A DNA stretch of 57,470 nt from Gammaproteobacteria bacterium. Lineage in GTDB: Bacteria; Pseudomonadota; Gammaproteobacteria; JABDGN01. The position numbers were made by a program, and so were the translations under genes. The notes under the pieces were generated by a model that did not search any database, was not told where the DNA came from, and worked only from the letters and a program-made list of their open reading frames with translations. Location: the NCBI GenBank assembly GCA_034110705.1, contig JAWUYR010000028.1, forward strand, positions 1 to 57,470. Direction: 5' to 3'. This document shows, piece by piece, positions 16,538 to 56,753 of the stretch (positions within the stretch are counted from its first letter, which is position 1; every line of letters starts with the position of its first letter).

Positions 16538-17107
16538 CTATTCATATGTCGGCTGCTCGGGCGTATACTTGGGCGGAGGTTCTACGTTATGATCCCTGGG
16601 CTCTTCATGATCCCCGCCATAACCAGATGTAAAGCCACCACTCGTCGTTGTTCCTGTTGTTGTAGGAGCTTTTGTGTCAGTACCAGAAGGGTCACCTTCA
16701 ACTAGCGGAGGCTCCGTTATATGTGTAATATGCCCGTTAAGACCTCCTAATAACTGGCTTGTACCATCACCTCCTATTTCACTTACTAGCAGATCACTGA
16801 GCTTAGTGCTCATCTCCGCTCGAATCGCACCTATATTATCTTTGGTTTGCTGTAATCCAATAAGTCTTTAACGGCAGTCGCTGGGGTGACAGCCTCTAAT
16901 TGTTTTTGCAAATCCTGTGCTTTGACAATGGTGCTGGTTAAAGAATCTTCTGCTGGGATTAAGGCGCTAATCACTGGCGCCTTAACAGAGGTAGAAGGTG
17001 TACTCAATGGTAGAATAGATGAGTCTATCGATACGTTATTTGCAATAACTTGTTTTAACAACAACCGTAAGCACAAGCAAAATTATTGTTAGCTTTATGA
17101 TATCCAT
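16538..17107 (-). pseudogene. Degraded signal-peptide protein of the acidic His/Pro-tail family (two frameshifts)
   Basis: MDIIKLTIILLVLTVVV from ATG 17107 joins KQVIANNVS.. after a shift in an A-run near 17057. A second shift near 16860 leads to the tail GHITHITEPPLV...DHNVEPPPKYTPEQPTYE. Confidence 0.6.
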
Positions 17108-17233
17108 ATCTTTATTTTCCATTTCCTCATGTTGTGCTAGCTTAGTATTATTTATCGGCTATTCTTTACCTTAAATGTTATAGCATTAATTGTTCGCATC
17201 TCGGCTATCGTTATCCAACCTCTTACCCTCAAT

Positions 17234-18634
17234 CTACTCTGATGGAGTCTCAGGCTGCTCTGGTGGAGGAATCACATGATCTGGGTCATCAGTGTCGCCA
17301 TGATCGACAGGATTATCAATAGGTGTTCCCAAATGCGTTTGGTCTGTAGTAGAGCCTGCAGTCGTTACTGTGGTAGTAGGAGTTCCATCGACAGGACTCT
17401 CTGTATGTGTTGTCACCACGCCTCCTGGAGAACCTAGCGTTTCAGGCACTTTTGCTGGTGGAGATTCACTATCTATAGTTGTATTGATTTCTCCAACCGC
17501 GCTATCTGTATCATTAAGCTGGGATTGTAGTGCATTCAAGATTTCCTCGTCCGTTGATGGCAATAAATTTCTCAGTCCTGGTATTGCTCGGCCAAATTTG
17601 TGCACGTCAGCCACAATAGAAGCCCAACGAGAACGTCCAGAAATCCTTGTGCTGGTGTTTATTATTTTCTCACCAATGGCTTTCAAGTTTTCGATTTGTG
17701 AATCTAACGAATCGACTCCGTAAGTATGGTTTGTCTCCCAACGCCCATCCTCAATCTGTAATGCACCTACCCCGGTAAGCTTATCTGTTAATGCTTGTAA
17801 ATCCGCAACCGTGCTATTATAGTGCTCTACTGCTTCATTAATCTTATCAGTACTACCAGCCGGAGCCTCAATAGGCTCAAGCTCGAGTGAGTCTGCATAA
17901 GCTCGAAAGAGTGTGGGGTTACTTTTTTGAAGTTCTAATGTCTTCACTAATGCCTCCCCAGGAACTCCATTTTTGAGCTTCTCTAGACTATTAATCCCCC
18001 TTATCTGATCTTTATAAGAGTCTATGTTCGTTAGCAATTTACCCAGTCGTGCAGAATCAGTATCATCATTATCTGCTTTGATACTGGCGTCTAAATCTTC
18101 TGCCTCTTTCAAAAGACCATTAAGCTCAGTGAGCGCATTCGGGACCTCTGCCGTTAAGCCATCTAAAGCTTGAAGGTAAGCACTAACCTTGGTCGGTGAA
18201 AATTTTACAATATCTTTTATTGTCAAGGAGCCCAACTCTGTAGAAACAACTTTTATTTGTTCAGAAATAGATTTTCTTTCACCTTCCTTAAAACCACTAT
18301 ACAAATCAATAGTTTTATTATAAGAAGCTTTGTAAGCCTCGGCATCAAAGCTATCCATAGTGCCCGCTTTGACCTTGGCTGCATCTATGGCGATTTTCCC
18401 CTCATATTGCTGAACAAGATTTTGGGCCATCTCGTATATTTCTGGCGTCACCTCAGCCGACAAAGGAGACCGAGTGCTTGCCGCAACGTGTACTGTGTTT
18501 GTACCTCCAAAACTCACCCCTTTTTTAACGGGGGCATCTGAAGATGCAGGAGTTGGGGCGGCTATTGCCGCTCCACCCCAGACCAACCCTAATGCCATCA
18601 CTAGTATTGTTAATTTATTTTTATTCATGTTCAT
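17234..18634 (-). CDS. Hypothetical exported alpha-helical protein with acidic His/Pro-rich C-tail
   Basis: 466-aa ORF with a Sec signal (..LGLVWGGAAIA|AP) and tail ETLGSPGGVVTTHTESPV...DHVIPPPEQPETPSE. Confidence 0.8.
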   Translation of the reverse strand: MNMNKNKLTILVMALGLVWGGAAIAAPTPASSDAPVKKGVSFGGTNTVHVAASTRSPLSAEVTPEIYEMAQNLVQQYEGKIAIDAAKVKAGTMDSFDAEAYKASYNKTIDLYSGFKEGERKSISEQIKVVSTELGSLTIKDIVKFSPTKVSAYLQALDGLTAEVPNALTELNGLLKEAEDLDASIKADNDDTDSARLGKLLTNIDSYKDQIRGINSLEKLKNGVPGEALVKTLELQKSNPTLFRAYADSLELEPIEAPAGSTDKINEAVEHYNSTVADLQALTDKLTGVGALQIEDGRWETNHTYGVDSLDSQIENLKAIGEKIINTSTRISGRSRWASIVADVHKFGRAIPGLRNLLPSTDEEILNALQSQLNDTDSAVGEINTTIDSESPPAKVPETLGSPGGVVTTHTESPVDGTPTTTVTTAGSTTDQTHLGTPIDNPVDHGDTDDPDHVIPPPEQPETPSE

Positions 18635-18655
18635 TGCTTCCTACTAGATTAGTTT

Positions 18656-19471
18656 CTAGATATTTTCATCAGGTTCAACAGGCTCAGGCTCATCCACAGG
18701 CTCCACTCCATGAGTATACTCACCATCTCGATCTATAGGATGCACATCTGTTGTGGGATCAGTTCCACTAGATCCTTTAGGATGAACGACAGGTGCCTTC
18801 TCCGTGTTCTCTGTAACACCACCACTCGCCGTTGGTGCCTCCAAGGTCTCATCACCACCCTTCCCAGAATTCTCTACTTTTTCAGCCAATTGGGCTATTC
18901 TTTTTTGTCTAATTACTGCCGCCTTAGCTACCTGCTCTCTTGCCTTAAGATTAACTTCCAGACTAGTAAGCTGGTCTTTTGTCAATTTCATCTTATCTCC
19001 CCAAATCCTTTCAGATATACGAGATATTACTTTGCCCATTTTTATCGCTTTCCATGCACCAGCAAAACTTTTTTCATATTCAGGCTCATTTATTCCCAAA
19101 GCAGCCCTAGCCTCTGTCTCGCTATAACCTGCGTCTTCCATGGCCTTAGCACCTTCTAATCGGGTCATTTTGCTTTTTGGCTTCGCTATCTTATCTAGAC
19201 TTGTTTTAGCAGCATCAGCTATCTTTTGATTCTCCATTATTTTATCTATAGCCTCTTTAAACTCTCCTCCATGACCCTCAGTATCAGCTTCACGGAGCTC
19301 ATCCTCATAAATGTTGGCATTCGGACTATTGTTCGTTTTAAGGTTCTGCATGATCTCGGCAAAAGTAGAGTTTACATTAGGTGGTGGAGTAGAAGAATCC
19401 GCCGACGTTGCAATGACATTGCTGTTAAACGTGAAAATTAAAATGCAGATTACAAAAAATATACGAAACAT
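18656..19471 (-). CDS. Hypothetical exported protein with acidic His/Pro-rich C-tail
   Basis: 271-aa ORF with signal peptide (..NSNVIA), GAGG RBS and tail ETLEAPTASGGVTENTEKAPV...THGVEPVDEPEP. Confidence 0.8.
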   Translation of the reverse strand: MFRIFFVICILIFTFNSNVIATSADSSTPPPNVNSTFAEIMQNLKTNNSPNANIYEDELREADTEGHGGEFKEAIDKIMENQKIADAAKTSLDKIAKPKSKMTRLEGAKAMEDAGYSETEARAALGINEPEYEKSFAGAWKAIKMGKVISRISERIWGDKMKLTKDQLTSLEVNLKAREQVAKAAVIRQKRIAQLAEKVENSGKGGDETLEAPTASGGVTENTEKAPVVHPKGSSGTDPTTDVHPIDRDGEYTHGVEPVDEPEPVEPDENI

Positions 19472-19591
19472 TATTCTTCCTCTTGTTTATTAACTGTCTT
19501 CCATGTCACTTCTTTCTGTTATTGTGAAGTGTTTTTTAAGTATAGTTGCTGTTGCTGATTTCTGCTGTTAACTTTTAACTAATTTTGTTGT

Positions 19592-20014
19592 TTAAGCGCC
19601 CATAACGGTAAATTGTACGTTGAGAAGATTGTCAGTTATTGAGTTTATTAAGTTGCCTGTGACTGTTGTAATTAACATGTCGACAACCGGCGCTCCGACT
19701 AGCAAAACTTGTGGGTTACCAGAGATAATTTTTTGTGGCCCAACGATAGTGCCATCATCAACCCCACCTATAGGAGCAGGACCGATAGGATCGGTTAAAG
19801 GTGTAACCCCAATTATTGCCAGCATACTTGCTGCTGGCAAGGCTTCAAATAAAACATTGATTACAGGAGCCACGTTTAGGGTGTACATCCCTATATTCAT
19901 TTGTGGAATTGGGGTGGGGACAGGTGCTGGCCCAACGGGCACAAGGTTAATAATAACATCAATTGGCCCTGGGGTCTGGTTCATACTCGGAGCTGAGTTG
20001 CCGAAAAATCCCAT
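19592..20014 (-). CDS. PAAR-like DUF4150 spike-tip protein (TagD-like)
   Basis: 'DV....P.GP.PVP.PIP..N', 'GGV..GTI.GP' and 'G...VL..GAP' patterns; position after the DUF3540 gene. Confidence 0.7.
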   Translation of the reverse strand: MGFFGNSAPSMNQTPGPIDVIINLVPVGPAPVPTPIPQMNIGMYTLNVAPVINVLFEALPAASMLAIIGVTPLTDPIGPAPIGGVDDGTIVGPQKIISGNPQVLLVGAPVVDMLITTVTGNLINSITDNLLNVQFTVMGA

Positions 20015-20025
20015 AGTGTATCTCC

Positions 20026-20688
20026 TTATCCTAAATGTACTTGTTCAGCGTCAATTTTGACATCTTGCTCAGCAAAAATGTCGGCGTATTCACAGTCAAG
20101 ACGATAGTCTTGCTGAACAAGCGTCTGAACGCGGCCAATCACTTCATGTTGTAAATCAGCAAGTTGGCTGAAGCTACGTTCAGCCTGTAAATGTGTGCTC
20201 TCGGTTACCGTTTCTAATAATTCTGTCTGTGTGTTTATATGCCGGACAGATTGTTGCAAAAAGTCACCTTTGTAGTGCCAGTGTGTGATCTCAGCTTTGC
20301 CTTTAGCAGCATACAAAGATAGCTCTGGACTGGTCAGTGACAAGTGTTGTTCGGCTTGTAACTCTAGATGCTCTGCTGTAATAACCGATGCATTTTCGTC
20401 GGTGTGAATAGCAAGATGTTTACTGAATTGAAATGTTTGTTCTGCACTAGCTTGTTCTAAAACAGCCAAGATATAGGGTGCTGATTCGGCCAATGCTACG
20501 ACTAATACTTTATCGCCAATATTCGGCCGCAAAATACAACTCGCGGCTAATGTTGCATTGAGTCGCTCGTTTTGTATGCAAATTTGAAAACCGTGTTCGT
20601 TTATATGCTGTACTTCAGCCATTTGCAAAGCTTCTTGTTGAGGCATAAACGCTAATCCGTTAGATGACATAGATTGGACTGTTTTCAT
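20026..20688 (-). CDS. DUF3540 protein (TagC-like T6SS accessory)
   Basis: AASCILRPNIGDKVLV, YILAVLE, C-terminal DVKIDAEQVHLG. Confidence 0.85.
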   Translation of the reverse strand: MKTVQSMSSNGLAFMPQQEALQMAEVQHINEHGFQICIQNERLNATLAASCILRPNIGDKVLVVALAESAPYILAVLEQASAEQTFQFSKHLAIHTDENASVITAEHLELQAEQHLSLTSPELSLYAAKGKAEITHWHYKGDFLQQSVRHINTQTELLETVTESTHLQAERSFSQLADLQHEVIGRVQTLVQQDYRLDCEYADIFAEQDVKIDAEQVHLG

Positions 20689-20699
20689 GTTGTACTCCT

Positions 20700-21815
20700 T
20701 TATAAATCGGTCGCTGGCATTTGCCAGCCATTTGCTTCGGCATAGTTGTCTTTAGCAGCTCTGGCAAGCTCTTTGTTGCTGCCTTGCCAATAAACATTGG
20801 CTATTTTTTTGGCTTGTAGTTCTGCAAGGTATAAATTGCAATTACTGAAGTTTGTATCAATTAATATGCTATCGGTAAAGGTTGCGGTTGCAAGATCGGA
20901 ATGACCAAAGTTAGTGCCAGTACAATTTGCTTGTTGGCAATAGATGAATTGTGCAGAAATATTCTGCATGTTCGCATTGCTTAAATTGGCTTCTTTAAAT
21001 AAAACAGAGGTCAGTTTTGCATGTGAAAAATCGGCCTCACTTGCTTCGGCTTTAATAAAGTTAGCCGAGTATAAATCACAATACGAAAAGTTTGCTTTTG
21101 TTAGATTCGCTTGCATAAAATTAACTTGGCCCATTGCTTTGCATTGACTAAAGTTGGCACCATTCGCTTTTGTCTCTACCATCATCGTCGCTGTTAACCA
21201 GCAACCAGGGAAGCTCATGTTACTAACATTAGATTGCATTAAATTAGCTTTGGTTAGGTTAGTTTCACTAAAAATAGTGTTTTGTAAATCATGCTTTTTT
21301 AACACAGCTTGTAATAAGCTGGCTCGTGTAAAGTCAACTTGCTGCAATTTACAGTCATTAAATAGAGCTTGCTTTAACAATGCTTGTTGAAAGTTAGCTT
21401 GTTGTAAATCACATGTATGCCAACGAGCTTTGGCAGATTGACTGTCTATAAACGTTGCTTGCTTAAGATCACATTGATTAAAATTGGCTTGCTCTAAATG
21501 CGCATCGTTGAAATTAACCTCACTTAAGTCACAATCTATAAAACTTAGTTTTTCGCTCACAATTGCATTGAAATTGCTGTTGGCCAATATACAGTTACGA
21601 AATGAAGGCGACGTCTTTTGTAAGTGGTGCTCATCTCCGAAGGCCACAAAGTCAATGCCGCTAAAATCACTATCGCTAAGCTGAGCTTTTTCAATAACAC
21701 GGCCTAGCTTATATTGCTCTAGTACCTCGGCTACAGACATCTTTTTCAAGTCGTCAGTTTGCCCTGGCAGGCCATAGAACTTTAATAACTTATCCGTTAA
21801 GCTAGGTTCAGCCAT
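20700..21815 (-). CDS. Pentapeptide-repeat protein (TagB-like)
   Basis: Long run of A(N/D)(F/L)xx pentapeptide repeats. Confidence 0.9.
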   Translation of the reverse strand: MAEPSLTDKLLKFYGLPGQTDDLKKMSVAEVLEQYKLGRVIEKAQLSDSDFSGIDFVAFGDEHHLQKTSPSFRNCILANSNFNAIVSEKLSFIDCDLSEVNFNDAHLEQANFNQCDLKQATFIDSQSAKARWHTCDLQQANFQQALLKQALFNDCKLQQVDFTRASLLQAVLKKHDLQNTIFSETNLTKANLMQSNVSNMSFPGCWLTATMMVETKANGANFSQCKAMGQVNFMQANLTKANFSYCDLYSANFIKAEASEADFSHAKLTSVLFKEANLSNANMQNISAQFIYCQQANCTGTNFGHSDLATATFTDSILIDTNFSNCNLYLAELQAKKIANVYWQGSNKELARAAKDNYAEANGWQMPATDL

Positions 21816-33264: not shown

Positions 33265-34875
33265 TTAGCTAGACTTTGTTAATTTTTGGTACAACTTGTT
33301 GTCCAAAATCATTAATTTTGCTAAAGCATATTGCTTTTGCTCATTATTTGCACCATTAGCTAGCTGACTATTAGCCTTATATAGCAGACTAAATAATTGC
33401 GCGGCCAAATCTGGCTCCCAAGCAATAACTTGATACTGCTCAATATAATTTTGTAGTTCTGTTAAATACACAGGTAATAAATCAAGCGTATTAAACATTA
33501 ATAAACATTCACAAAGAGTCATTTGAGAAACTACTCTCTCGCGGATAGACGTTGTCGTACTGATAGTCTGCTGAAGATACTGAAGTAATTCCTTTTGCTC
33601 TTGTTCATTTGAATTAGAACCTACTTTATTTAATAAGGTTGCTAATTTTTGTCCCTCTCCTTCCATTTGAGTAATAGGAGGTATAGTACATTTCTCGGCA
33701 GTGTGCAAACTTCCTAGGCTTAATAGCCATTTTTTTGTCTCCAAACTGCTGCAACGAGTACCATCGGAAAATTTTAACTGCGTGACTTGGGGAAAACGCT
33801 CCTGCAACATTAATAAAAAATACTTTAACACGGCTAATATTGTCTGATGACCACTTTTATTGGCTAGACTTTGGTACAAAATACGGTGGAGATCTAACCA
33901 AAATGGATAACGCTGTGCATACGCCTCTAGCGCTTTAATTTTTGTAGTCGAATATTTTTGCTCTTTAAATCGCTGAATATCCAACTCTATCATCTTATTT
34001 GGAAAAGAAATATACGTTTCAAAGTTCTCATCATGCTCGGGTAACTGTGTTAAATCCCCCCAAATTGCAGTGCGGCTGAGCACATAAGCTCGAACATCTT
34101 GATAGTCATCTTGTAACAACGCATTTGATTTTTTCAATAATCAAAATTCCACATCAGCTGTGCTTTCTTTAATTATATTTACTTTTTCTTCTTCTTTTTC
34201 TTGTCTAGCATCCAATGCAGCAATAGGCTTTATAAGCTCAGGCTCATCTAGAGCAGTACTCACCTCAGTATTTTCTTCAATCGGTTCAGCTACAATAGGG
34301 CTTGCTTCTGCTGCCAACTGTAACTTACGCTCAATACCAGCCATTTGCCGAGTAATTCCCAGTACCAAGCTTGCAATGCTGTCATCTTTAAAGTGTTTCT
34401 CAGCGGCTTGATTTAAATGCTGAAGAGATGATTTGAATTGCGATATATGTTTTTTATCTAATGAGGAAAAAAAAGTAGCGTTGAAGTTTTTTTGTAATTG
34501 CTTCACCAACCAGCCCAATGCAATGGAATAACTCTTTGGGCGTGTCTGAGGCTGTAAATCGCGGGAAAACTTATTAGTTAATTCTGTTAAAAAATCCAAA
34601 CCTTGGACCAAACCTTCTGTACCGTAAACTTTACTCAAGGCAATCACCAAATAAACTGCCACTAAAATATCTTTACTTTCAGTTTGCAAAATGGCTAATG
34701 ATTGTTTGGAAACTTTACTCCAATTAACATTAACATGCCCTGTAAACTGTTCCATCTTACGCACTTCACCTTTAAGCTCAGCAAAAGATGTTGTTTGACG
34801 TATATCTAGGCCACAAGGGTTTTCCGGAGAAACCTTATTTTTAATGACTTTTTGTAATGCTGACTTATTAAACAA
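33265..34875 (-). pseudogene. tssA: T6SS TssA (ImpA_N + VasJ-type), one in-frame stop
   Basis: PENPCGLDIR, VNWSKV, SKDILVAVYL, PFWLDLHR, LKFSDGT, WEPDLA; in-frame TGA at 34141. Confidence 0.88.
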
Positions 34876-34989
34876 TATTCAATACCTACAGCTTCGTTAA
34901 AATTTCACTTTCCAAAAAAATTCTTTATCGATCTAGTCAACTTGACTAATATTGAAATTTATTTTTTTTGTTTCACTATTATAAAAAGT

Positions 34990-37900
34990 TTAGCCTTGAC
35001 TATTGGTCCAACACAATGCAATTTTTTGTGGCATAGCGCCATCATGTAAATACTTTTGTTCATTTTCCAAAAGCTGTTGTCGCAGTGTAAAGAATTGATT
35101 TAACGTATGCAGCATTGTTTCAACACCTGAAATTTGATACGAAGGCATGATGGTTTTGATCTTATAGGCATTTAACAATTTCAGTTGCTGTGGAAAATTA
35201 GCAGCAGTAAAGCTTGGCTGCCCCTCACCAAAGTCTTTAATGAATTTAGCAAATTCATATCTACCTGGATAACTTTTCGTTAACGTCATTGCTTTAAAAT
35301 AAATAGAGATGCTAGCCGGACCACACTCACCTAAATTCCATTTTAACGTTTGATTGACAGGAAAGTTAAAGTTTTTTATTTTCACCATTTTCTTATTACA
35401 AATCTTTCGCAGAATCGTTTTATAAGGCAACATTCTAGCCCCGGCATTTACATTAGTAGAATAACTGTTCACCGTAATAAGGCGACCACCATTTTCATTA
35501 GAATAACGTTCAAACTGTGCTTCTTCGCGACTAATCGCTTGAATAGTTAAACCTCGATTTATAAAGTTATAGAACTCATCACTAAATGGGAAAATATGCC
35601 CATAAATAACTCTCGGCACATAAGAATCTTGTTTTATCTCTAAAAAGGGCTGTATAAATTTACTAACAAACTTCCACACCACACCATCTTGAGAAAATAA
35701 AGTCTTTGTTAACTCGTCTCCTGATAAACCTGCTACTGGTTTTAATACACTTTCTACCCATTGTTGCTGAACATAACAAGAAGCATTACGGTTATTGTAA
35801 TCCATGTAGTAATCGAATGGTCCACGAACAATTGACCAAAAGACACTATCGTGAACATCAGATAGGCCAACTAACTTACGCATTAAAGCGTAACTATCAT
35901 AAGCTTTAGTCAAAGCTTTTGAATCACCACTTTTTTTTTAAGAAACTGCTGAATCATAGACAGACCAAATCGATTTGTATGATTGACCAATTGAATCAAC
36001 ATTGCTAACAAACAACTTTTCTAAATCAATCTGGTATTGTACAAAAGCATTTGCAGCTCTTAAATCGACATTAAAATCACTCCGATACAATCCCCCTAGC
36101 GCACCACGTCGACTAATGTCAGATGGTTTTTCGACAATAGTGTCTATAAATCTTAGCGTTACCGAGGCTACATCTTTATAATTATCTACACTTTTATGCT
36201 TAACTTGAAAGTCTAGCAGTGAATAAAAATTCTCGACTTGTTTTATCCAAGATGGTGAGGATTTACGTTTCGTCGCACCAAACTCTGTCATTAGGACATC
36301 AAGTAAATGATAATAAGGACCTTTGGTTAATAAAATAACATCTGGATTATATATACTATCCCACTCTGTTTTGTAATTAAGAGTCTCCGTTCCACGATGA
36401 AAATATAAAATAAAGTTATACCAAGCATTTAAACGTTCGGTGTTATACCAAGTTTTAAATATATCTTCTTGATAATTAATATTTAAGTGACCTGGTAATG
36501 CTTTATTAATTTCATGCAAAAACTTAAAAACTCTTCTAGCCCCATCTTTGCTATAAGCTTTATCTATCACTAAATTTTTAGTTATTGAACTTCCCTTCCA
36601 AAAAGTTTTTAGCGTTGTTTGCTTAATGTCTTCTTGTGCATTTACCCAATCAACAATCCAATTTAAACTGGACTGATCACTAAGTAATTTGAACTCGATT
36701 ATCCATCGCTTCAATTTCACTTCTTCGACACTTAACGCTTGCTTATTGTTTTGCCAAATAATGTAGGTTTTATACAGGGCGCCAAAATTATCTAAGATAG
36801 TACTTGGTATCTTAGTAAAGCCTAGGTGCTCTAATTCCGGTGAGTCAATCGCCATAAGCGCCTCATAGGAGTGGCCACTCAGCTTAGCTTGGATGAGCCT
36901 AATGCGCGAGACGATATTTTCGACTAGGTAAGCTCGCTGTAGCGGTGTCAAGTGATCGCTGTTTTGCCTTAAAAAACTTTCTAAGTGCTCATCAAATAAC
37001 GACGAGACATTTCGTTGAAACTGGCTAACATATTTTTTTGAATATAGCTTTTCAATTTTATTTAAACCGAAATGAAAAGGTACAATACGAATTGTCTAGC
37101 GCTGACGGAAGGTTAGAATGTTACGCATTAAATTATTATAACTTGTTATTGTAACTAAGTTACGACTAAAGCTATCTGAATAGTGCACCTTGGGTGGCAC
37201 AGCCTTAATCAAACTAACTAAATTACGACTGGTCACAAGAAAAGAATAGATTGTATATAAAGATAAAACTGCAAATATAGTATAGACGGAATAAAAAGCG
37301 ATACCCTTACGAATGGATATCCTTTCCATGCTGTAAGCTGAGATTTTTGGCAAAACATTTTGCTTCTCTAATACCGTAGAAATTAAATCGTAGGTAAAAT
37401 CAAAATGATTCTTCTCATTTTTCCCAAACAAAAAAAACCTGATAAATGAGCACTACTAGCAACCTTCGTGCCAAATAATAAATCACTCAATCGCAGCCAA
37501 TTAGTTTGCGCTGATTGAAATGCGTTGGAAAAACTATAGATCATTTCAACATTTTTATACTCACCATGCTGGAACTGTCGATCTAAAAAATCGTTCAAAC
37601 TATTTAATATACGTGGGAATGCCGTCGAATTAAAATCAGTTTCTTTGGCGGTAGAATAAAGGCCTAGAACCTGTTGTCGCTGCTCCATACTTAAAGCTTG
37701 AGTGAATTCTGTATAGCCTGGTAAAGTTTCCAAGCCTGTAAAAATAATAGAAATCGGAATGGAGTAACCGCTTTCAACAAAAATTTGTGCAATGCGATTT
37801 TTAATTGCCGTTAGTTTTGTCGTTAAATTTTCTAGTGCATCTTCACTAAACGCGGTAATCGAGACGCTAATAATTAATTTGTTGAACGCCGATCCTTTAC

Positions 37901-38429
37901 GGTGATCTTTAACGTAATCAATAAATTTCAGCCACTCAGTCCGCTTATGATTTTCTAGTAGAGCTTGTGCAGGGCGCATCATAACCAAATTGTCAGTAAC
38001 GGTCCAATAAGCTCCCATTGCTTTTTCTGAGTTATTCTTTACTTCTGGCAGCTGCTGATATGGGGTCAAAGCATACGATAAATCTGAGGAATCTATCTCA
38101 AAGTATAAATGCTATGGTTTTTGATAAAAATCTTTACGTACTCACGGATTATCAGAATGGCCTAATTGACGATGTACTTCATGTAAACTGTGCAATAAAT
38201 CATTAACATCATCTGAACGACTAGCGGCACTTTTAATGAACCCAGTTTTATGTTTATAAATTCTTTTACGAACATAATGGATCACAAACAAAATGATCGT
38301 TAAATAAACGATGAAGAAAACCACCACCGTCCAAATTGGCCAATCTACTAAGCCAAGACTAATGAAAGCTAGAACCAACGATCCTAGCATAATCAAAATC
38401 CATTTTAATAATTTTCGTATCATTGCCAT
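34990..38429 (-). pseudogene. tssM: T6SS membrane complex TssM (IcmF), four stops and one frameshift
   Basis: N-terminal TMs, LPGYTEF, WVESV, VWKFV...PF, IFPFSDEF, TNVNAGA..P..T, NFNFP, W....CG. Stops at 38142, 38112, 37096 and 35938; frameshift in a T8 run near 37430. Confidence 0.82.
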
Positions 38430-38439
38430 TCAATCAATC

Positions 38440-39093
38440 TCACATTAACGTAGCGATGTAATTCTTTACCGTAAAATGTAAAATACCGTAAAAGAACATA
38501 AAAACTAAAATAAGTAACACTACCGGTATTAACCACCAAATAAGTTTGCGTTGATACCATTTACTCACTTTCTTAACAGTAATATCAATCGGTTTTTTAT
38601 CTAAGCATGCATATAAATCTGGAAAAAATTGCTTGCTGCCACCTACAGCCATAAGTTCCAAGCAATCTTGCTTAATCGTATTCAAGTGTGTTACGTCATC
38701 CGGGCTGTAATAACGACCTTTAAAGCCTAAAACTAAGCAGCGATAGTAAACGCGAATAACACTCTTCTCATCCGTGGAAAAGCTTGCCATGCGTTCAAAA
38801 AACTCACTACCAGCATTAGCAGTAGAAAAATATTTCTCTTGTAGTAATTGTTGCTGCCATTCATTTTTGCTTTACCACGACGAGCGCTGAACAGTTTCAT
38901 CTATCCAAGCATAAACAGCAAATTTTGCAGATGCTATCGCCTTTGGCTCAATGTTTACTGTGTTACTATCAAGCTCAGTAATCACATTACTAATAGAGTC
39001 TTGAAAGGCAACAAAATCCAAATCAGAAAATTGCTTTGCTTGTTGCTCTGTCACTACATTTATTAAATCACCAAAGTAACTATAAAGTTCCAT
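38440..39093 (-). pseudogene. tssL: T6SS TssL (DotU), one in-frame stop
   Basis: AKFAVYAWIDE, LQEKYF...NAGSEFF, YYRCLVLGFKGRY, C-terminal TM; in-frame TAA at 38872. Confidence 0.9.
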
Positions 39094-39101
39094 TTTTTAT
39101 C

Positions 39102-40472
39102 TCAACTTGCAGCCATGCTGACGGTTAATTCAATGGGTAAATTACCAACATAAAGCGCCATGCGTTGATCTTTCTCAATCTTCAACCATTCCGCATTAGC
39201 TTTATCAATACTAAAATACAGACAATTATTAATATTCGGAATACCTTCGGGCACACTACCAATTACTTTTAAAGCAGCACCAGGCAAAGAGAAAGATAGA
39301 CTATTTTCAACATTACTATAAGCACATAACTTACTGGTACTATTAATATGAGTTAATACATCATCTAGTTTATCTGCATCTGTTTTCACTAAGAGATAAA
39401 AGCTTTGGTTTTCGGTGAAAAATTCTTTTGTCGCATCCATGACATATAAATTTTCCTCTTTTTTCGCTTTGATATATCTTTCAGAGGTCAGGACAATTTG
39501 ATTTAGTGTACTTAAAATTAAATCACAAGTACTAAGCAAACATTTTGATAAATCATCATGTGTATAATTCGACAGCAGGGGATTGCCTTGCTTATCTTGC
39601 CCGAGCACATTAACTTGTCTTGTAAAAATGCTAATTTCGGCGAGTAATTCTGCCAAAGCACAATAAAAATTTTCCGGATGTGCTACTTCACCATTAAGTA
39701 AATGTGTGAATTGTGTTGCATAACGGTTTAAACTACCTAAGAGCAATAAATTTTTAATATGACCTTGATTATCATAAACAGTAACTGATTTTTTTAACAA
39801 CTCAATTTGATTAATTCTATCCATTAAGTTTTCATAAAATTTTTATATTTTTACAAACAAATTTGATGAAGCTTTAATATTTAAACACACAGGAATAAAA
39901 TCAGGGTCAAGCGTAATCTTATCGGCTGTTTTAATCAGAGTGGCCACTGGCAATAAAACATAATTCTGCACTTGTGCAGCTTCAGTATCCCAAAAAATCT
40001 TAGCCGCATATTTCAATTGCTTCACATTCGCCTGCGGGCCTTTATTATATAAGTCTTCTTCATCAGCCCCTTCAGTGCTAACAAACCGAGTATTTACATC
40101 AGCACTTCCACTTGCCTCTGTGACATTAGCTTCAACAGTAGAGAATTCTTTAATGCCCAAATACACTTGGCAACGGGTAACGCCCGCTTTTGTTTGATCA
40201 GCAAAAGAACGTGGAGCAAGCTGACAGCTTACTGGGATCTGTACAACAGCACCTTGTTGTGTAACAAAAGTACCACTTTTAATGCTAAATATACTATTTT
40301 CTAACAAGCCTTCATCTATTTCACAATCAACTATACCCCAAAAGTTGGGTGAAATAAATTGCATACGTGCTGCAAGTAAATACTGATGATACAAATCTGT
40401 TAATTGAAAATGCTGTGGCTGCAAGAATAAGCCTTGTTCCCAATTAATAGGTAGTCTTGTTTGAGCCGTCAT
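39102..40472 (-). pseudogene. tssK: T6SS baseplate TssK, one in-frame stop
   Basis: WEQGLFLQPQHFQ, WGI, LDPDFIP, HPENFY, YTHDDL, SLPG; in-frame TAA at 39843. Confidence 0.92.
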
Positions 40473-40488
40473 ACTGGTCTCCTTTCCT

Positions 40489-41061
40489 TTATTGCTCACG
40501 AGAGTATGCGCTGGCAATGCCTTGCTTACCCAAATTAAGTTTCACATGCAACGGTACTGGCATATAAATTCGTTTCCAAAACTTAATGCCTTCAATCTCA
40601 TTGCCAATCGGAATATTAAATATTTTGACGACTTGGCCTGGATTCAACTGATTGTAACCTGCAACAATCACAATATGCTTCATGCCGGCCATGCGGGTTA
40701 ATTGTATAGTTTTCCTTTCGCCAGGCGCAACGAATAATTTGCTAATAAATAAGGATCTTGCTTCAGCCTGCGTATTTACTTTTTCTAATAAAGTGGCAAT
40801 GCCTTCGGAAGTATCCAATAAACTTTGCACGGCTTGTAATTCTGATACTTGAATTACAGCGAGGAGTAAGGTGTGAGAACGGCCATTAAGAGTATCTAGT
40901 TTTCGCGGAGCTTCAATGTGAATATTAATCGCGTTAGTTTTATAAGCCCACATATGTGCATTCACTGCGGGATGCTTTTCAGCAAAACAGCCGCTTAGTC
41001 CAATAATAAAAATGCCCAATAAAACAACTCGGCCAATTACATAAGCTAGATTTCTAATCAT
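40489..41061 (-). CDS. tssJ: T6SS outer-membrane lipoprotein TssJ
   Basis: Lipobox LSGC, H.L.L...Q, FVAPGE, IVAGY; first gene of the T6SS cluster. Confidence 0.85.
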   Translation of the reverse strand: MIRNLAYVIGRVVLLGIFIIGLSGCFAEKHPAVNAHMWAYKTNAINIHIEAPRKLDTLNGRSHTLLLAVIQVSELQAVQSLLDTSEGIATLLEKVNTQAEARSLFISKLFVAPGERKTIQLTRMAGMKHIVIVAGYNQLNPGQVVKIFNIPIGNEIEGIKFWKRIYMPVPLHVKLNLGKQGIASAYSREQ

Positions 41062-43747: not shown

Positions 43748-45187
43748 ATGCAATCAACCCCTACCGCATCTAGTAATTCATATGTAATACTTATTTCAAT
43801 GGTCGCGGCTATAGCAGGGATCTTATTTGACTTTGATACTGGTGTTATCTCTGGTGCAATTCTTTTTATAAATACTCAATTTCATCTTTCTACCTTCATG
43901 AATGGTACTGTGGTCAGTGCTGTTTTATTCAGGGCATTAATAGGCTCTATCTTTAGTGGTAAAATTACCGACCACTTTGGCCGAAAAATGATTCTGATAT
44001 CAGTGGCCTTAGTTTTTGCTTTTGGAACATTACTAACCTCATTTGCACCAAATTTATTCTTATTGATATTTGGCCGTTTTATTGTCGGCATAGCGATAGG
44101 CTTAGCTTCATATGCTGCCCCGCTGTATATTTCTGAAATTGCTCCATCACAATATCGTGGCGCGCTAGTGTCATTAAATCAATTAGCCATTAGTATCGGA
44201 ATATTGCTTTCATATGTTGTCGACTACCTTTTAGCGGCACAACACGCTTGGCGCTTAATGCTAGGTCTTGGCGTTGTACCAGCCTTATTGCTCTTAGTTG
44301 GCATGATTTTCTTACCTCGCAGCCCACGCTGGATGTTTTCAAAAGGGCATCATCATAAGGCAGCCGCTATTTTGCGACGCATCCGCGGCAGTGATCGTGA
44401 TATCGATCATGAGCTCAGCATGATGCGTGATCATTTAAACCATATGAAAGGTAGTTGACATATTTTATTCTCAAAAACAATTCGCCCAGTTGTTTTTATT
44501 GGAGCGGGCTTAGCCATTTTACAACAAGTAACCGGTATCAATACGATACTTTATTATGCACCCACTATTCTTAAAGCGGTTGGCTATGGCAGTAATAGCC
44601 ATGCCATTTTAGCAACCATGGGCGTAGGTGGAATATTTGTTTTATTTACCATTGTATTCTTACCCTTGATTGATGTAGTAGGCCGTCGCAAACTGTTGGT
44701 TATAGGCTTGCTAGGGATGGCGCTTGGTTTAGCTGTCATGATCTGGTCCTTCCATCATACCAACCTTACACCACATCAAAAGCTAATTTTATTGGTAGGA
44801 TTATTTATTTATATTGCTTCATTTTCATTTAGCTTAGGTCCCATTATGTGGCTAATGGTTTCAGAAATTTATCCACTCAAAGTACGCGGCATTAGTGCAA
44901 GTTTTGCAACCAGTATTAACTGGGCGAGTAATATGATTGTCGCTTTTACCTTCTTATCTATTGTTAAAACTATTGGTATTCCCAGCACTTTTACCATTTA
45001 TCTGGTCATGTGTTTTGTGAGTATTGTTTTTGTTTTATATTTAGTACCAGAAACAAAAGGTATATTACTAGAACAAATCGAGGTCAATTTATTAGAAGGC
45101 AAAAAATGGCGTCATTTAGGTGATAACTTCACTCAACACAATAAAGCTGATATTGAACGCTTAGGTGAAGCATTAGAGAAAAATTAA
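43748..45187 (+). pseudogene. Sugar porter family MFS transporter (GalP/XylE-like), nonsense mutation
   Basis: DTGVISGA, DHFGRK, PLYISEIAP, PRSPRW, QQVTGINTILYYAP, DVVGRR, SEIYP, PETKG. In-frame TGA at 44456 where Trp is expected. Confidence 0.88.
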
Positions 45188-45190
45188 AAA

Positions 45191-45267: not shown

Positions 45268-45350
45268 ATAAGCGCGTATTGTACTTGTTTCGCTTAATAT
45301 CGTCTATTTAAAATATTCATCGCAGATTTACAGCCAAACTCGAAAAATTT

Positions 45351-46388: not shown

Positions 46389-46440
46389 GCGTCTAACTCC
46401 TTTATGTTAAATCAATTATACCGAAAAAGCTGACTGTAAA

Positions 46441-47866: not shown

Positions 47867-47868
47867 GG

Positions 47869-49182: not shown

Positions 49183-49307
49183 TTAATATATCCTCTATTC
49201 ACTGAAAAAGGAGTCTATTCTAACGGAAACAGATTTGCATTGCACCTGATTCATCATTGAAAGAAGCTCATGAGCTCATATTAATAGTCATTATTATTTG
49301 GAGATTT

Positions 49308-49829: not shown

Positions 49830-49992
49830 TTGATTATCTAACTCTAGTTAAAAATGGACTTAAAACACTGCATGATTTTTCTATCGACGCATTAAAAAAT
49901 AGAGAAAAAACAAGGGCAGGAAGAAGACAATAACCCTCAGCTCCCCAATAGCCATCTTTGATGATCACCTGCTTCACCCTTAAACTAAATGA

Positions 49993-51147: not shown

Positions 51148-51256
51148 GAGTGAGCCTATACAATAAAAAGAATGATGAATTGTACACGATTTTTATTATT
51201 TTGTCTGAGGCTCCGTAATAAAACCAATGACTAAAGACGAAAAGTGAATCTAAATA

Positions 51257-51910: not shown

Positions 51911-52045
51911 GTCTCGTCTATCCTATTGATTGGATGCTGCAGTTTATAACTTATCTTTAAACGAAGCAAATAGATGCCGCTTACCTAATGCTGAACCACG
52001 CCTTATACAAACCTTATTTCTTCATTAGAATGAACACCTCGACAA

Positions 52046-52089
52046 TGATTCAATATTTGAATCAATTATTAATATTAATTCATTATACT
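52046..52089 (+). promoter_or_regulatory. Palindromic operator candidate plus -10 (TATACT) upstream of the amino-acid ABC operon
   Basis: Perfect TGATTCAA-TAT-TTGAATCA (52046-52064), ARG-box-like TTAAT-ATTA-ATTCA (52069-52082), then TATACT. Confidence 0.35.
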
Positions 52090-52149
52090 TAATCCTTTGC
52101 ATTTGATATTCTCCCTCTTAATCAGAATAAAGCCAACTTAGAGGCCCTA

Positions 52150-52899
52150 ATGAGTGAAATATTAACAATTAAAGGTTTAAGCAAATCGTTCCACGATGAA
52201 GTCGTGTTAGAGCATATTGACCTAACTCTAAATAGTGGCGACATTAAAGTCTTGATTGGCAAAAGTGGCTCAGGTAAAAGCACACTGCTTAAATGTATTA
52301 ATCAACTTGAACAAGCTTCGAATGGCAGCATTGATGTAATGGGCCAGCATTTTGATTTCAGTAAAACACAAAAAAACAACAAACCCGCCTTGAAAGAGTT
52401 ACGCAAGAATGTGGGTATGGTATTTCAGCATTTTTGCTTATGGCCTCACTTATCAGTTCTAAAAAATCTTAGCTTAGCACCCGTTAAATTAAAGCTAATG
52501 TCCAAACAAGAAGCCGAGCAACAAGCCGAGGAGCTCTTGCACCGTTTTGAACTAAGCCACAAAGCCTCTGCCAAACCAAGCAGCTTGTCTGGCGGTCAAC
52601 AGCAACGTGTTTCAATTGCCAGAAGCTTAATGCTTAAACCTAAAATCATGTTATTTGACGAACCCACTTCAGCGCTCGACCCAGAAATGACACAAGAAGT
52701 ACTGAACATTATTACCGAATTAAAAAGTGACAACATGGCCATGCTGCTTTGCACACATGAAATTGGTTTTGCCAAAGCCATCGCCGATGAAATTTACTTT
52801 CTACAAAAAGGGCGCATCATTGAATCTGGCACAGCATCAATTATTGATAGCCCACAAACCGATGAACTAAAACAATTTCTACAGCACACGTATCATTAA
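52150..52899 (+). CDS. Polar amino-acid ABC transporter ATP-binding protein (ArtP/HisP/GlnQ-like)
   Basis: GKSGSGKST, LSGGQQQRV, FDEPTSALDPE. Confidence 0.93.
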   Translation: MSEILTIKGLSKSFHDEVVLEHIDLTLNSGDIKVLIGKSGSGKSTLLKCINQLEQASNGSIDVMGQHFDFSKTQKNNKPALKELRKNVGMVFQHFCLWPHLSVLKNLSLAPVKLKLMSKQEAEQQAEELLHRFELSHKASAKPSSLSGGQQQRVSIARSLMLKPKIMLFDEPTSALDPEMTQEVLNIITELKSDNMAMLLCTHEIGFAKAIADEIYFLQKGRIIESGTASIIDSPQTDELKQFLQHTYH

Positions 52900-52911
52900 A
52901 AGGAAAAAAAC

Positions 52912-53661
52912 ATGAAGAAACTAGGCTTAAGCTTACTCTTGTTAATCATTAGCTGCTCGCAATTCGCATATGCAAAGCAAACACTGACCTTTGCCACAGA
53001 AGCAACCTACCCGCCTTTTGTTTCCATGACCGCAAGCGATAAAATGGTTGGTTTTGGCCCAGACTTAGTGCATGCGCTTTGTAAAATCATGCAAACTAAT
53101 TGCCAATTAGTTAACGCGCCATGGGAAAGCTTAATTCCAAGCTTAAAAATGGGTAAATACGATGCCTTATTTGGCGGTATGGGTATTACACCAGCCAGAA
53201 AAAAAGTCATTGATTTCAGCTTACCTTATTATCAGAATGCAATGGCTTTTGTTGCCAACAAAAGCACTCACTTTGTCCTAGAACCACAATGGCTAAAAGG
53301 TAAAACTATCGGCGTGCAAGGTGGCACAGCTTTTCAAAATTACCTGCAAACAAAGTTTGGAAAACTCATTACAATAAAAACCTATGCCAGTAACATGGCC
53401 GCTTTAATGGATTTAAAAGCAGGCAGAGTAAATGCTGTGTTTTTAGACAAGCCCGTTGCAGTAACCTGGCTACAAAAACCTGACAGCCAAGCTTATACCA
53501 CCATTGGCAATATCACCTCGGTGAAATTTTTTGGCCCTGGTAATGCTATCGCCATCAACCAAGGCAATACAGCTCTACAACAAAAAATTAATGTTGCCAT
53601 AAAAACGATGCAAACTAATGGTCAGCTAAAAAAACTACAAACGAAATGGTTCGGTAAATAA
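52912..53661 (+). CDS. Basic amino-acid ABC substrate-binding protein (ArtI/ArtJ-like)
   Basis: Signal peptide, FATEATYPPF, SLIPSL, GKTIGVQ.GT, DLKAGR. Confidence 0.88.
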   Translation: MKKLGLSLLLLIISCSQFAYAKQTLTFATEATYPPFVSMTASDKMVGFGPDLVHALCKIMQTNCQLVNAPWESLIPSLKMGKYDALFGGMGITPARKKVIDFSLPYYQNAMAFVANKSTHFVLEPQWLKGKTIGVQGGTAFQNYLQTKFGKLITIKTYASNMAALMDLKAGRVNAVFLDKPVAVTWLQKPDSQAYTTIGNITSVKFFGPGNAIAINQGNTALQQKINVAIKTMQTNGQLKKLQTKWFGK

Positions 53662-53663
53662 AC

Positions 53664-54311
53664 ATGCATTCTTTTTATGCCAATATCTTATTCGCGACAA
53701 AAACAACGCTTGGTATTTCTTTATTATCACTGTGTGTAGGTTTACTTTTAGGCTTACTGTTAGCACTGAGTGAAATATCACCCGCTTGGCTAAAAACCAC
53801 TATGAATGCTTGGGTGATGTTGATTCGGGGCTTGCCTGAAATATTCATTCTTTTTATGTGTTATTACGGCTTAACTCTATTATTAAAAAAATTTGCAGGG
53901 CATTATGTAGATCTAAACCCCTTTGTCTGTGGCGTGATTGTATTAGGGATCGTCTTCTCTGCTTATGCTAGCCAAATATTTATTGCGGCACTGCATGCTA
54001 TTCCTCAAGAAGATTTACTCGCCGCCCAAGCACTCGGACTAAATAAGCCAACTATCTGGCTGTCTATCATCATGCCTCAACTATTTCGCCATGCATTAAC
54101 TGGCTTATTAAATTTATGGTTAGTTTTATTAAAAGATAGTTCCATCGTCTCATTAATTGGCCTACATGATATTATGAATGTTGCGCATGTAGCGGCGTCC
54201 GAAACATTTAAACCTTTTAACTTTTATTTATTTGCCGGTGCTATTTATTTATTTTTAACGTTCATCTCTGGATTTTTAGGTAAAAAATTAGAAACGAAAT
54301 TGGCTTTATAG
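53664..54311 (+). CDS. Amino-acid ABC permease (ArtQ-like)
   Basis: IRGLPE, EAA-like loop, NLWLVLLKDSS. Confidence 0.88.
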   Translation: MHSFYANILFATKTTLGISLLSLCVGLLLGLLLALSEISPAWLKTTMNAWVMLIRGLPEIFILFMCYYGLTLLLKKFAGHYVDLNPFVCGVIVLGIVFSAYASQIFIAALHAIPQEDLLAAQALGLNKPTIWLSIIMPQLFRHALTGLLNLWLVLLKDSSIVSLIGLHDIMNVAHVAASETFKPFNFYLFAGAIYLFLTFISGFLGKKLETKLAL

Positions 54312-54318
54312 GTATAAC

Positions 54319-55047
54319 ATGTTTTCAATTATCACTCAAAACTACTCGGCTATCTTAGATGGAATTGGCACCACCTTATTCTTGCTCATTATTTCACTTT
54401 TGGCTGGGCTAATTTTATCGGTAACGTTTGCAGCCATAAAATATTATCGCATCCCCGTTCTTAAGCAAGCCGTCGATACTTTTGTGTTTTTTATCAGAGG
54501 CACACCTTTTTTAGTGCAGCTATTTTTAATTTATTATGGCCCGTTTCAATTTCACTGGATGACACATTCTTGGTTGGGCATTCCCTTTAAATCCGCTACA
54601 TTCTGTGCTTTATTAGCGCTCATCTTTAACACCACGGCTTACACAAGCAGCTTGTTTTATGGGGCTATGAGAAATTTACCTCAAGATGAAGTAACGGCAG
54701 GCACGGCCTTGGGATTATCTAACTGGCAAAATTATGTGTATATCATCTTGCCTCGATATTTTGTCCGCATTTTACCAGTCTATAAAAATGAAGTGATCAT
54801 GTTATTAAAATGTACGTCACTTGTTAGTACAATCACTATCTTAGATGTTATGGGCGTTATGCGTCAAATCATGACGCAAACCTACCAAACTATTCCCAGC
54901 TTATTAATTGCCGGTATTATTTATTTAGTGCTAGCCGTAGCGCTTAACGCCGTCATGAAGTTTTTTTACTCAAAAAAACTCCATAAGGTTAAAAATGCTT
55001 TGCTTTCTCACGTTCACCAGATTTCACTCTTATTTCTCCATTATTGA
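54319..55047 (+). CDS. Amino-acid ABC permease (ArtM-like)
   Basis: RGTPFLVQLFLIYYGP.QF, NTTAYT, NEVIMLLK.TSL.STIT. Confidence 0.88.
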   Translation: MFSIITQNYSAILDGIGTTLFLLIISLLAGLILSVTFAAIKYYRIPVLKQAVDTFVFFIRGTPFLVQLFLIYYGPFQFHWMTHSWLGIPFKSATFCALLALIFNTTAYTSSLFYGAMRNLPQDEVTAGTALGLSNWQNYVYIILPRYFVRILPVYKNEVIMLLKCTSLVSTITILDVMGVMRQIMTQTYQTIPSLLIAGIIYLVLAVALNAVMKFFYSKKLHKVKNALLSHVHQISLLFLHY

Positions 55048-55115
55048 AATCAATGCTCGTATTAACGTGAGCTGCAAACCATTTTTGTAAAACTGAGCTC
55101 CCCCTACAGCAATAT

Positions 55116-56753
55116 CTATTCCATGGGAGGAAGATCTCTAGGCTCAACTGGATGATCATTGCCGTCATTATCATGTGAGCCATTATCAGTCTCGCCATTA
55201 TTATGCCGCTCTACAGGTAATCCCTCAGGGTTAGAGTCATTCGGAGAGTCCGTTTTAGGCTCAATAGTAACAGGTGCTGCAACAACATGCTGTACCACAG
55301 ATCCATCTCCTTTTGGTACATTCAGAGTCTCATCCGGGGCTTTATCAGTTCCCTCTGTAAAAGTATTCACCTCTTGAGTTAGATCCTTTATATGTGCTGT
55401 CAAAGCATTTGCTTTTTGCTGGCGTGAGCCCTCAGTTAGTGAGAGTTTTGATAAAAAGCTTTTGAAAAAATCTTTTACACGCGCAGTTGTACCGCCAGAT
55501 TCGATAGAGGTGTAGATATCACCTAAACTAGTATGAGCCTCTTGCAAATCAGATGTTGTTGATTCTAGCTTAACTAATTGCTCAACTGATAATTGTTTTC
55601 CATCTGCTGTCTGAGCATCATAACTTTTTTTCAATGCCTTTGATGCCAATGATAATGCACCATAAGCTTCTCCATAAGCTTTGCGCAAGGAGGCCTTCCC
55701 TTTGCTCGGCATAGGTGATTGACTAACATCTGTATTTAATGACGTAAGGCTCTCAGATGCACGCTCATTCAGCACTTTAGCATAAGATTTTACATACTCA
55801 TCATAAAAACTCTCAACATTCTTTTCGTTTGTTCCACTTGGAAAGGCAGTGTCACTGCTTGGATCAGCTACACTTTTTAAGCTATCTAAAAAGCTAAGCT
55901 GGGCTTTTGGATCCATATCTTTAGTTAAGTCAAGTAAGCTATCAACACTAGCCGTGTTTGCAGCATCATCATCCGACCATTTTTTTGCTATTCTAGACAC
56001 TAGTGTATTAGCCATTGCCGCACCAAATGTTTCTGGCTTACCCTCACCATCTTTGCCGGTCACTACGGATAAAAGGTTGGTTTGCTCGTCGGCAGGTAAT
56101 TTTGAAAATGCTTCGAAAGTATCTGTTAACTCGGCCGGAGATGTAAATTTACTCATTTTCCCCAACACAGCTTCTTGAACTAACGTACCCTGGGCAGATC
56201 CAAGATAATAAGCTGCGTCTGAATCAGCCGGCAAAGCACTAATAGCAACCGTAGAAGCACCAAGCGTTGTCGCAAGACTAGGCCAATCAATCTGCCCTTC
56301 TGGCAGCTCACCTGAAGCTGTTTGTGTTTTTAATACATCAACATATGCGGCAAAATCACCGGGCGCTGCCTTTTCTTCTGCAAATTTATCCCCCATAGAG
56401 ATAACCGCATTCATTCTATGGTATTGACTATTCTGCGCATCTGTCAACTTACCGGATTTCTCCAAGCTCGTTAAGTTCTGCTCTATAACATCCAGATTTT
56501 TGTTCGTTAATGCACCCCATGCTTTACCAGACAAATTTTCTAAACTATCTAAATAACGTCCTGCAGTATCAGAGGTAATCTCGCCAGTGTTAACCGAAGA
56601 GACCAAACGCTTAACTGAAAGTGGCGGCTGAGAAGTGCTCTGCTCGGGTCCGGTAACGGTGGGGGAGCTCTCATTGGCAAAGACTACCGTGCTATTTAAG
56701 CCCAATAGAGCAACACAAATAACAGCCGTTTTACTAAAATTAAAATTGATCAT
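55116..56753 (-). CDS. Hypothetical exported alpha-helical protein with acidic His/Pro-rich C-tail (similar to the 17234 and 18656 genes)
   Basis: 545-aa ORF with signal peptide (..NSTVVFA), GAGG RBS and tail DETLNVPKGDGSVVQHVVAAPV...DHPVEPRDLPPME. Confidence 0.8.
   Translation of the reverse strand: MINFNFSKTAVICVALLGLNSTVVFANESSPTVTGPEQSTSQPPLSVKRLVSSVNTGEITSDTAGRYLDSLENLSGKAWGALTNKNLDVIEQNLTSLEKSGKLTDAQNSQYHRMNAVISMGDKFAEEKAAPGDFAAYVDVLKTQTASGELPEGQIDWPSLATTLGASTVAISALPADSDAAYYLGSAQGTLVQEAVLGKMSKFTSPAELTDTFEAFSKLPADEQTNLLSVVTGKDGEGKPETFGAAMANTLVSRIAKKWSDDDAANTASVDSLLDLTKDMDPKAQLSFLDSLKSVADPSSDTAFPSGTNEKNVESFYDEYVKSYAKVLNERASESLTSLNTDVSQSPMPSKGKASLRKAYGEAYGALSLASKALKKSYDAQTADGKQLSVEQLVKLESTTSDLQEAHTSLGDIYTSIESGGTTARVKDFFKSFLSKLSLTEGSRQQKANALTAHIKDLTQEVNTFTEGTDKAPDETLNVPKGDGSVVQHVVAAPVTIEPKTDSPNDSNPEGLPVERHNNGETDNGSHDNDGNDHPVEPRDLPPME

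Follow-up and report, generated by a model that had tools for sequence, protein, structure and literature searches.

Intracellular and host-associated Gammaproteobacteria possess lineage-specific substrates of the type II secretion system (T2SS), such as the 'novel' T2SS substrates of Legionella; host-associated bacteria also have multigene families of surface proteins with conserved ends and variable middles. The C-terminal tags of the PEP-CTERM/exosortase, LPXTG/sortase and GlyGly-CTERM/rhombosortase systems carry at their very end a transmembrane helix and a cluster of basic residues. Here we compare with these systems a family of four genes, A, B, C and D (Table 1), found in a stretch of 57,470 nucleotides (the window) that makes up positions 1 to 57,470 of contig JAWUYR010000028.1 in assembly GCA_034110705.1, Gammaproteobacteria bacterium; the assembly is 65.7% complete. 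Genes A, B and C stand in a row behind the tip genes of a type VI secretion system (T6SS); gene D is located ∼35 kb from A and B, away from any T6SS locus, just downstream of parC.

Judged from its sequences, the family is most like lineage-specific proteins exported by Sec and T2SS, and it falls into no described family. With the Legionella-type T2SS substrates it shares a Sec signal, a narrow lineage, the lack of recognisable domains and the presence of a T2SS operon in the genome; it differs from them in having a disordered common tail and a paralogue array, and the secretion of A–D is a prediction. Multigene surface-protein families are similar in another respect: a conserved 5′ signal and leader, a common 3′ module and a variable core are present here too, and near-identical tails occur on different foreign cores. 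Unlike in such families, there is no DNA-level identity among A–D, so active cassette recombination would not be expected here.

The account that we favour, and to which we give about an even chance, is as follows: A, B and D, with the dead copy C, are lineage-restricted paralogues encoding soluble, helical, Sec-exported proteins of the envelope or the exterior, whose role is independent of the adjacent T6SS.

That the four genes form a real family is indicated by their C-terminal tails, the similarity of which appears to exceed what composition alone would give. The last 70 residues of A, B, C and D have a net charge of −8 to −13 and 13–17% Pro, with 4–6% His as compared with 0.6–1.1% in the cores; because of this composition the tail is predicted to be disordered. 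A fraction of polar or disorder-type residues of at least 70% in the last 70 residues was observed in 4 of 958 stop-to-stop open reading frames (ORFs) of at least 200 codons in the assembly; these were A, B, D and RNase E, the tail of the latter being basic. When the last 80 residues were compared pairwise against 500 composition-preserving shuffles per pair, A–D (z 8.1, 0/500) and B–C (z 4.9, 0/500) were above the shuffles. Hidden Markov models (HMMs) were more sensitive to the common pattern: the real score was reached by 0–1 of 1000 shuffles in leave-one-out tests, by 7–38 of 1000 in two-against-two tests, and by 0–21 of 1000 when cross-subfamily tail profiles included the foreign members described below. 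The acidic tail that the preliminary description had seen in all four genes is thus borne out by the profile tests. An HMM of the four tails detected no fifth member among 10,693 assembly ORFs (next best E 7.7).

Just upstream of the tail lies a coil, which had been noticed as common to two of the proteins. This also held: a B-type profile of the region recognised D (5/1000 shuffles), with a weak score for A (28/1000), and did not recognise the foreign protein P0004 (214/1000). A and D matched each other in BLASTP at 25% identity over 244 residues (E 1.8e-8, database of four sequences). The sequences fall into two subfamilies, A-type (A, D and the foreign P0004) and B-type (B, C and the foreign P0006 and P0007), with D as a bridge, having a coil like that of B, and a tail and leader like those of A. 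The leader, AGTTAATAAA-N0-3-AGAGG, was present at two places only when both strands of the 1.39-Mb assembly were searched, one in front of A and the other in front of D; its first 10 bases alone occurred 21 times.

The N-termini of A, B and D each have a basic n-region, a 12-residue hydrophobic stretch (mean Kyte–Doolittle hydropathy 2.15–3.25) and a small-x-small site; the predicted cleavage sites, assigned by eye using the −3,−1 rule, are VIA↓TS, AIA↓AP and VFA↓NE. Linkers rich in Ser, Thr and Pro follow. The Sec-type signal and linker claimed earlier for the family are therefore present in A, B and D, while C keeps a signal-like piece and a linker. No lipobox was seen and no Cys stands at the predicted cleavage site in A, B or D, hence these are presumably not lipoproteins. 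The mature proteins have no further transmembrane-like segment (maximum 19-residue mean hydropathy 0.39–1.11).

The cores are poor in Pro (3–4%) and Gly (5–7%), and their sub-threshold Pfam matches are to coiled-coil families only, which is consistent with mostly helical structure. We saw, in agreement with the preliminary description, that the middle regions differ and do not align: sizes vary two-fold, and the N-terminal cores of B and D align no better than shuffles (z 0.9). The basic amphipathic helix described for the three intact proteins stood in part. The segments are basic in A, B and D alike (net +3/+4); amphipathicity is clear in A and D only (hydrophobic moment at the 95th and 86th percentile within its own protein, as against the 58th for B), and the segments of the three are not convincingly alignable with one another.

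No match above curated cut-off was found for A–D in Pfam, NCBIfam or PHROGs, the best hit of the family profile among PDB sequences had E 0.49, and none of five queries passed a Pfam cut-off, toxin, marker and immunity domains included; to this extent the family is indeed unrecognised. Weak matches to V-SNARE_C, P10, Laminin_II, FadA, SMC-like and GldL profiles were characterized as coiled-coil noise, and the reading of the proteins as SNARE mimics is unsupported. Autotransporter or adhesin fragments were rejected as well, as Pfam, NCBIfam and PDB gave no match to a beta-barrel translocator or adhesin repeat.

A HMMER pass over 1.84 billion representative proteins returned six at E ≤ 0.001: four of the window's own and two foreign ones, P0004 (282 residues, E 4.8e-23) and P0006 (468 residues, E 8.9e-6). 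A further search added P0007, a fragment of 93 residues. D had no match in 40 related genomes and the family profile had none in six further genomes from the same order, one of which belongs to the same genus and is 94% complete; with only two foreign proteins in 1.84 billion, the family would thus be restricted to a lineage. Of the 8000 candidates scored in word-based searches with B or D as query, only the query itself came back. The search for further members that the preliminary description had proposed therefore yielded the three foreign proteins, and none elsewhere in the assembly or in related genomes. The three are single-member ENA clusters, each on a contig of its own (11.3, 3.6 and 3.2 kb), and their loci were not recovered in scans of metagenome and genome contig collections.

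P0004 is the orthologue of A (48% identity over residues 1–203, E 1e-59) and P0006 that of B (29% end to end, E 1e-46); both also carry Sec-type N-termini. Identity between A and P0004 is 73% in the signal (16/22), 60% in residues 101–140 and 69% in the basic segment 141–175; between B and P0006 it is 68% in the signal (15/22), 41% in residues 321–390 and 27–30% elsewhere. Since the foreign orthologues keep frame, signal and internal segments while other parts drift, A and B appear to be real genes under constraint. The signal peptides (19409-19471 and 18560-18634 in the window) are the best-conserved parts between orthologues, which is unusual for signal peptides.

The tails behave differently. 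A and P0004 are 26% identical there, with 15 gap columns, and B and P0006 30%, with 23 gap columns. The HMM of the window's tails scored P0006 (12/1000) and P0007 (3/1000) above shuffles, and P0004 not (840/1000). Composition is kept in the foreign tails (net −13 to −25, His 7–11%). The first 25 residues of P0007 align to residues 366–390 of B; its tail, on the other hand, is identical at 43 of 47 positions to the tail of P0004, the orthologue of A. With fast drift between species, yet near-identical sharing between different cores in one case, the tail behaves as a recombining or homogenised lineage-specific module rather than as a fixed tag. In this respect the preliminary description, which had taken the tail for a conserved secretion or sorting tag, was not supported: the tail is the worst-conserved region between orthologues, and it has neither a hydrophobic anchor nor a known motif architecture. 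It resembles the C-terminal sorting tags in being a C-terminal module on exported proteins with different cores, and the tails of A–D contain VEP/PEP tripeptides; still, PEP-CTERM, LPXTG and GlyGly-CTERM were ruled out, as the last 40 residues contain no hydrophobic stretch (highest 9-residue hydropathy −2.02 to 0.13) and the termini are acidic.

No DNA-level match was found among A, B, C and D (blastn, word size 7, E ≤ 1). This rules out recent gene conversion within this genome; any exchange of tails here would be old. The family genes have a GC content of 42–44% as compared with 39% for the assembly. We did not take this as a signal of horizontal transfer, since the excess is explained by tail codons and no sharp island stands out in the 1-kb profile. 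Neither a tblastn search of plasmids with D nor one of phages with B gave a match that would suggest a mobile origin.

With regard to gene integrity, the reading of C passes from frame 0 to frame 1 and back to frame 0 (pieces 17039-17158, 16834-17082 and 16541-16867); having two frameshifts, C is a pseudogene. Its N-terminal piece weakly resembles the signal of B (7/17). The last piece contains a 91-residue ORF (16538-16813), for which an independent start is unlikely, as GGAG abuts the ATG without a spacer. This ORF and P0007 share the start Met-Ser-Thr, at one and the same position in the B-type coil; either both are remnants truncated at an identical position, or there is a short tail-only product. 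For A, we took the start at 19471 because the orthologue P0004 matches the signal that follows from it; the database gene call (P0003, 231 residues) takes an internal Met as its start and lacks the signal. Positions 16400-36000 have no inserted or missing letters in comparison with contigs from two seawater metagenome runs of one study; these runs are possibly the source sample, so the comparison is not independent and argues only against an assembler artefact.

The T6SS beside A, B and C is decaying, as was noticed earlier. TssF, TssC, TssA and TssK are each split in two ORFs, TssM is fragmented, and TssB and TssL are truncated; TssG, TssE, Hcp and TssJ look whole. An internal TAA is present in both assembly copies of the sheath gene tssC (31187-32641 in the window and 12500-13819 of contig C67, a second T6SS locus). 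Uninterrupted TssC matches, one to six per genome, are present in five of six related genomes. Both T6SSs are apparently being lost from the genome studied here. With both tssC genes interrupted, seven core genes split or truncated, A and B open, and D outside the T6SS locus, the family would be independent of T6SS.

The five genes upstream of A match domain for domain the module (VgrG, DUF2169-PRP, PRP, DUF3540, DUF4150) called 'synteny type C' (PMC11883445) and the 'Class III Tvp' accessory system (PMC13373197). According to the passages on the module in these papers, it supports assembly of the VgrG–PAAR spike and needs no downstream cargo; signal-bearing downstream genes are not mentioned in those passages, and the module is a neighbour of the family, not a relative. 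The T6SS link of the preliminary description is therefore not sustained, given the state of the sheath genes, the distance of D and a tip module of this type.

One could outline the following sequence of events for the favoured account, of lineage-restricted Sec-exported proteins. A, B and D would be exported via Sec with cleavage of the signal, and would then stay periplasmic or surface-bound, or exit through T2SS. Function would be carried by the segments conserved between orthologues (residues 101–175 of A and 321–390 of B), possibly as binding to a partner or to the membrane. The tail would be a fast-evolving accessory module, exchanged or homogenised between paralogues; tails could be alike because a single lineage-specific partner has to accommodate every copy, or alternatively the tail could be an acidic, possibly cation-binding, spacer. 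The position behind the tip genes would reflect a variable slot for accessory genes and not loading onto T6SS.

Several points weigh against this account. Export, cleavage and T2SS passage are what we infer from the sequences. Four of the six tail pairs are not significant when taken alone: A–B (z 1.8, 27/500), B–D (z 2.3, 17/500), A–C (z 1.5, 47/500) and C–D (z 0.6, 132/500). In hhalign, A-type against B-type gave a weak match of the tail only (E 0.0074, probability 5%) and A-type against D no tail match, these being two-sequence alignments, too shallow to decide. The three foreign proteins are on three separate contigs and need not come from one genome. An assembly of such completeness may lack further members of the family, or other secretion systems. 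Finally, no terminator is predicted between the PAAR-like gene and A and B, which come right after it. They could therefore be transcribed together with the tip operon, which would allow a T6SS-related role such as immunity; promoter and terminator scans did no better than shuffles.

The latter role is the first of the rival explanations: A, B and D could be orphan T6SS immunity-like periplasmic proteins, neutralising periplasm-acting effectors of neighbours. We consider this unlikely, although it would account for the Sec signals, the array directly behind spike genes and the survival of genes beside a dead core. Signal-bearing orphan immunity genes have been described in arrays at T6SS loci, and the arrays at vgrG/PAAR loci are indeed similar in having signal-bearing paralogues right downstream of spike genes, kept without a working apparatus. 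Unlike such arrays, A–D have no adjacent toxin: the PAAR-like protein is single-domain, and no Pfam toxin domain was found in VgrG or the other tip genes. Sizes differ two-fold, the cores are unalignable, the tails are long and disordered, one copy (D) lies elsewhere, and there is no match to a Pfam immunity family.

The tail could, alternatively, be a genuine export or sorting signal recognised by a machine of its own, whether T2SS, what is left of the T6SS tip, or an undescribed system. In favour of this is that the module is common to otherwise different exported proteins and unique in the assembly; a tail similar among paralogues yet drifting between orthologues would fit co-evolution with one lineage-specific receptor. 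However, conservation between orthologues is poor (26–30%, with P0004 at the level of shuffles), there is no anchor or terminal motif, no candidate sorting enzyme was identified and the T6SS is broken; we regard the explanation as improbable. A related proposal, which we hold to be just as doubtful, is that the tail is an anchorless C-terminal recognition module for Sec-exported proteins, with a secretion, sorting or host factor as its single lineage-specific receptor. Such a module would be most alike among paralogues and least conserved between orthologues because it co-evolves with the receptor and is copied between unrelated cores.

It is rather less probable that A–D are periplasmic or surface proteins buffering or scavenging metals, with Asp/Glu/His-rich tails binding Zn, Ni or Ca. 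In all seven sequences the tail has a net charge of −8 to −25 in 70 residues and 4–11% His as compared with 0–1.1% in the core, and the tail of P0004, a foreign A-type member, ends in HE-rich repeats. This is an argument from composition only; no metal-binding family was matched and no neighbouring metal transporter identified, the ABC permeases beside D being uncharacterised.

That there is no true family, and that unrelated exported proteins have tails alike by composition only, would agree with the four non-significant pairs and with the weak hhalign support; we think it very improbable, as all tests used composition-preserving shuffles and the profile tests were passed, the same order of motifs is seen in all four, A and D have a leader in common, and D bridges the subfamilies. 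The least credible explanation is that they are classical T6SS cargo, carried by the VgrG/PAAR-like spike. It has gene order only in its favour, while Sec signals conflict with cytoplasmic loading, both sheath genes are interrupted, no toxin or marker domain passed a Pfam cut-off, and the tip-module type is described, in the passages on it in PMC13373197, as self-sufficient for spike assembly.

What is new here is a protein family without detectable relatives in curated libraries, seen so far in two uncultured organisms. An orphan family of exported paralogues is not new in kind; the unusual feature is the similarity of tails among paralogues versus their divergence between orthologues, a small example of a disordered C-terminal module exchanged among exported paralogues and drifting fast between species. 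Should the tail prove to serve recognition, a new principle of sorting would be defined; otherwise, the genes are candidate envelope or secreted factors in a genome losing both T6SSs, and bear on what reduced marine bacteria keep at their surface.

Table 1. Coordinates of the family genes, their leader motifs and the neighbouring T6SS genes in the window
Feature	Position	Strand	Basis	Description
Gene A	18656-19471	minus	ORF call	271 residues, open frame
Gene A, parts				Predicted signal ∼residues 1–21; S/T/P linker; helical core; conserved basic segment, residues 139–157; acidic His/Pro tail, ∼204–271 (18659-18862)
Gene B	17234-18634	minus		466 residues, open frame; starts 21 nt past the stop of A
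Gene B, parts				Predicted signal 1–25; linker; long helical/coiled-coil-like core; conserved segment 321–390; tail ∼391–466 (17237-17464)
Gene C	16538-17122	minus	Three-frame reading	Decayed B-type copy between B and argS
Gene C, parts				Signal-like piece (frame 0); linker and short core (frame 1); coil and tail (frame 0)
Gene D	55116-56753	minus		545 residues, open frame; between an ABC permease gene and parC
Gene D, parts				Predicted signal 1–26; linker; largest core; B-type-like coil; tail closest to that of A, residues ∼470–545 (55119-55346)
Leader motif AGTTAATAAA-N2-AGAGG	19479-19495	minus		7 nt before the start codon of A
Leader motif AGTTAATAAA-N0-AGAGG	56760-56774	minus		6 nt before the start codon of D
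T6SS tip module, whole	19592-27136	minus	Pfam	
VgrG	24860-27136	minus	Pfam	
DUF2169-pentapeptide	21808-24780	minus	Pfam	
Pentapeptide protein	20700-21833	minus	Pfam	
DUF3540	20026-20688	minus	Pfam	
PAAR-like protein	19592-20014	minus	Pfam	Single-domain, 140 residues
Decaying T6SS core	27536-41061	minus	Pfam profile ranges	

The VgrG and DUF3540 genes of the window had no close counterpart in the relatives searched. Between tssG and vgrG, an ORF of 107 codons (27193-27516, minus strand) has no Pfam match. Gene decay is not confined to T6SS, since a sugar-transporter gene of the MFS type (43748-45187, plus strand) is also split in two ORFs (profile positions 2–234 and 295–450).

The gsp operon, on contig C30, appears to be an intact type II secretion operon: GspD, E, F, G, K, L and M match their profiles nearly end to end (seven of seven ORFs tested). 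A PilQ-type secretin is also in the assembly. As some Dot/Icm (type IVB) effectors have an acidic C-terminal signal, that system was looked for too: no match to the DotH/IcmK family was found in the 65.7% of the genome assembled, and none to an ATP/ADP translocase, control genomes being equally silent in both cases.

The order parC, metK, ahcY around D is kept in a genome of the same genus (G001). The slot after parC there (3226-3555 of L033) has no D; it is occupied by an unrelated Cys-rich ORF of 109 residues with a signal-like start. As a different signal-bearing ORF is present in G001, the post-parC position is a variable slot for exported ORFans.

The check for a host-associated lifestyle detected one ankyrin ORF. 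In another genome, G002, an ORF of 824 residues beside argS (616-3090 of L035) contains about eight 33-residue repeats, ankyrin-like by eye, which suggests a host-associated lineage. Near parC of G002 (2838-6702 of L034) there are three tandem paralogous ORFs of 412–427 residues with motifs that look kinase-like by eye (HRDL..N / HGDIKPEN, DFD).

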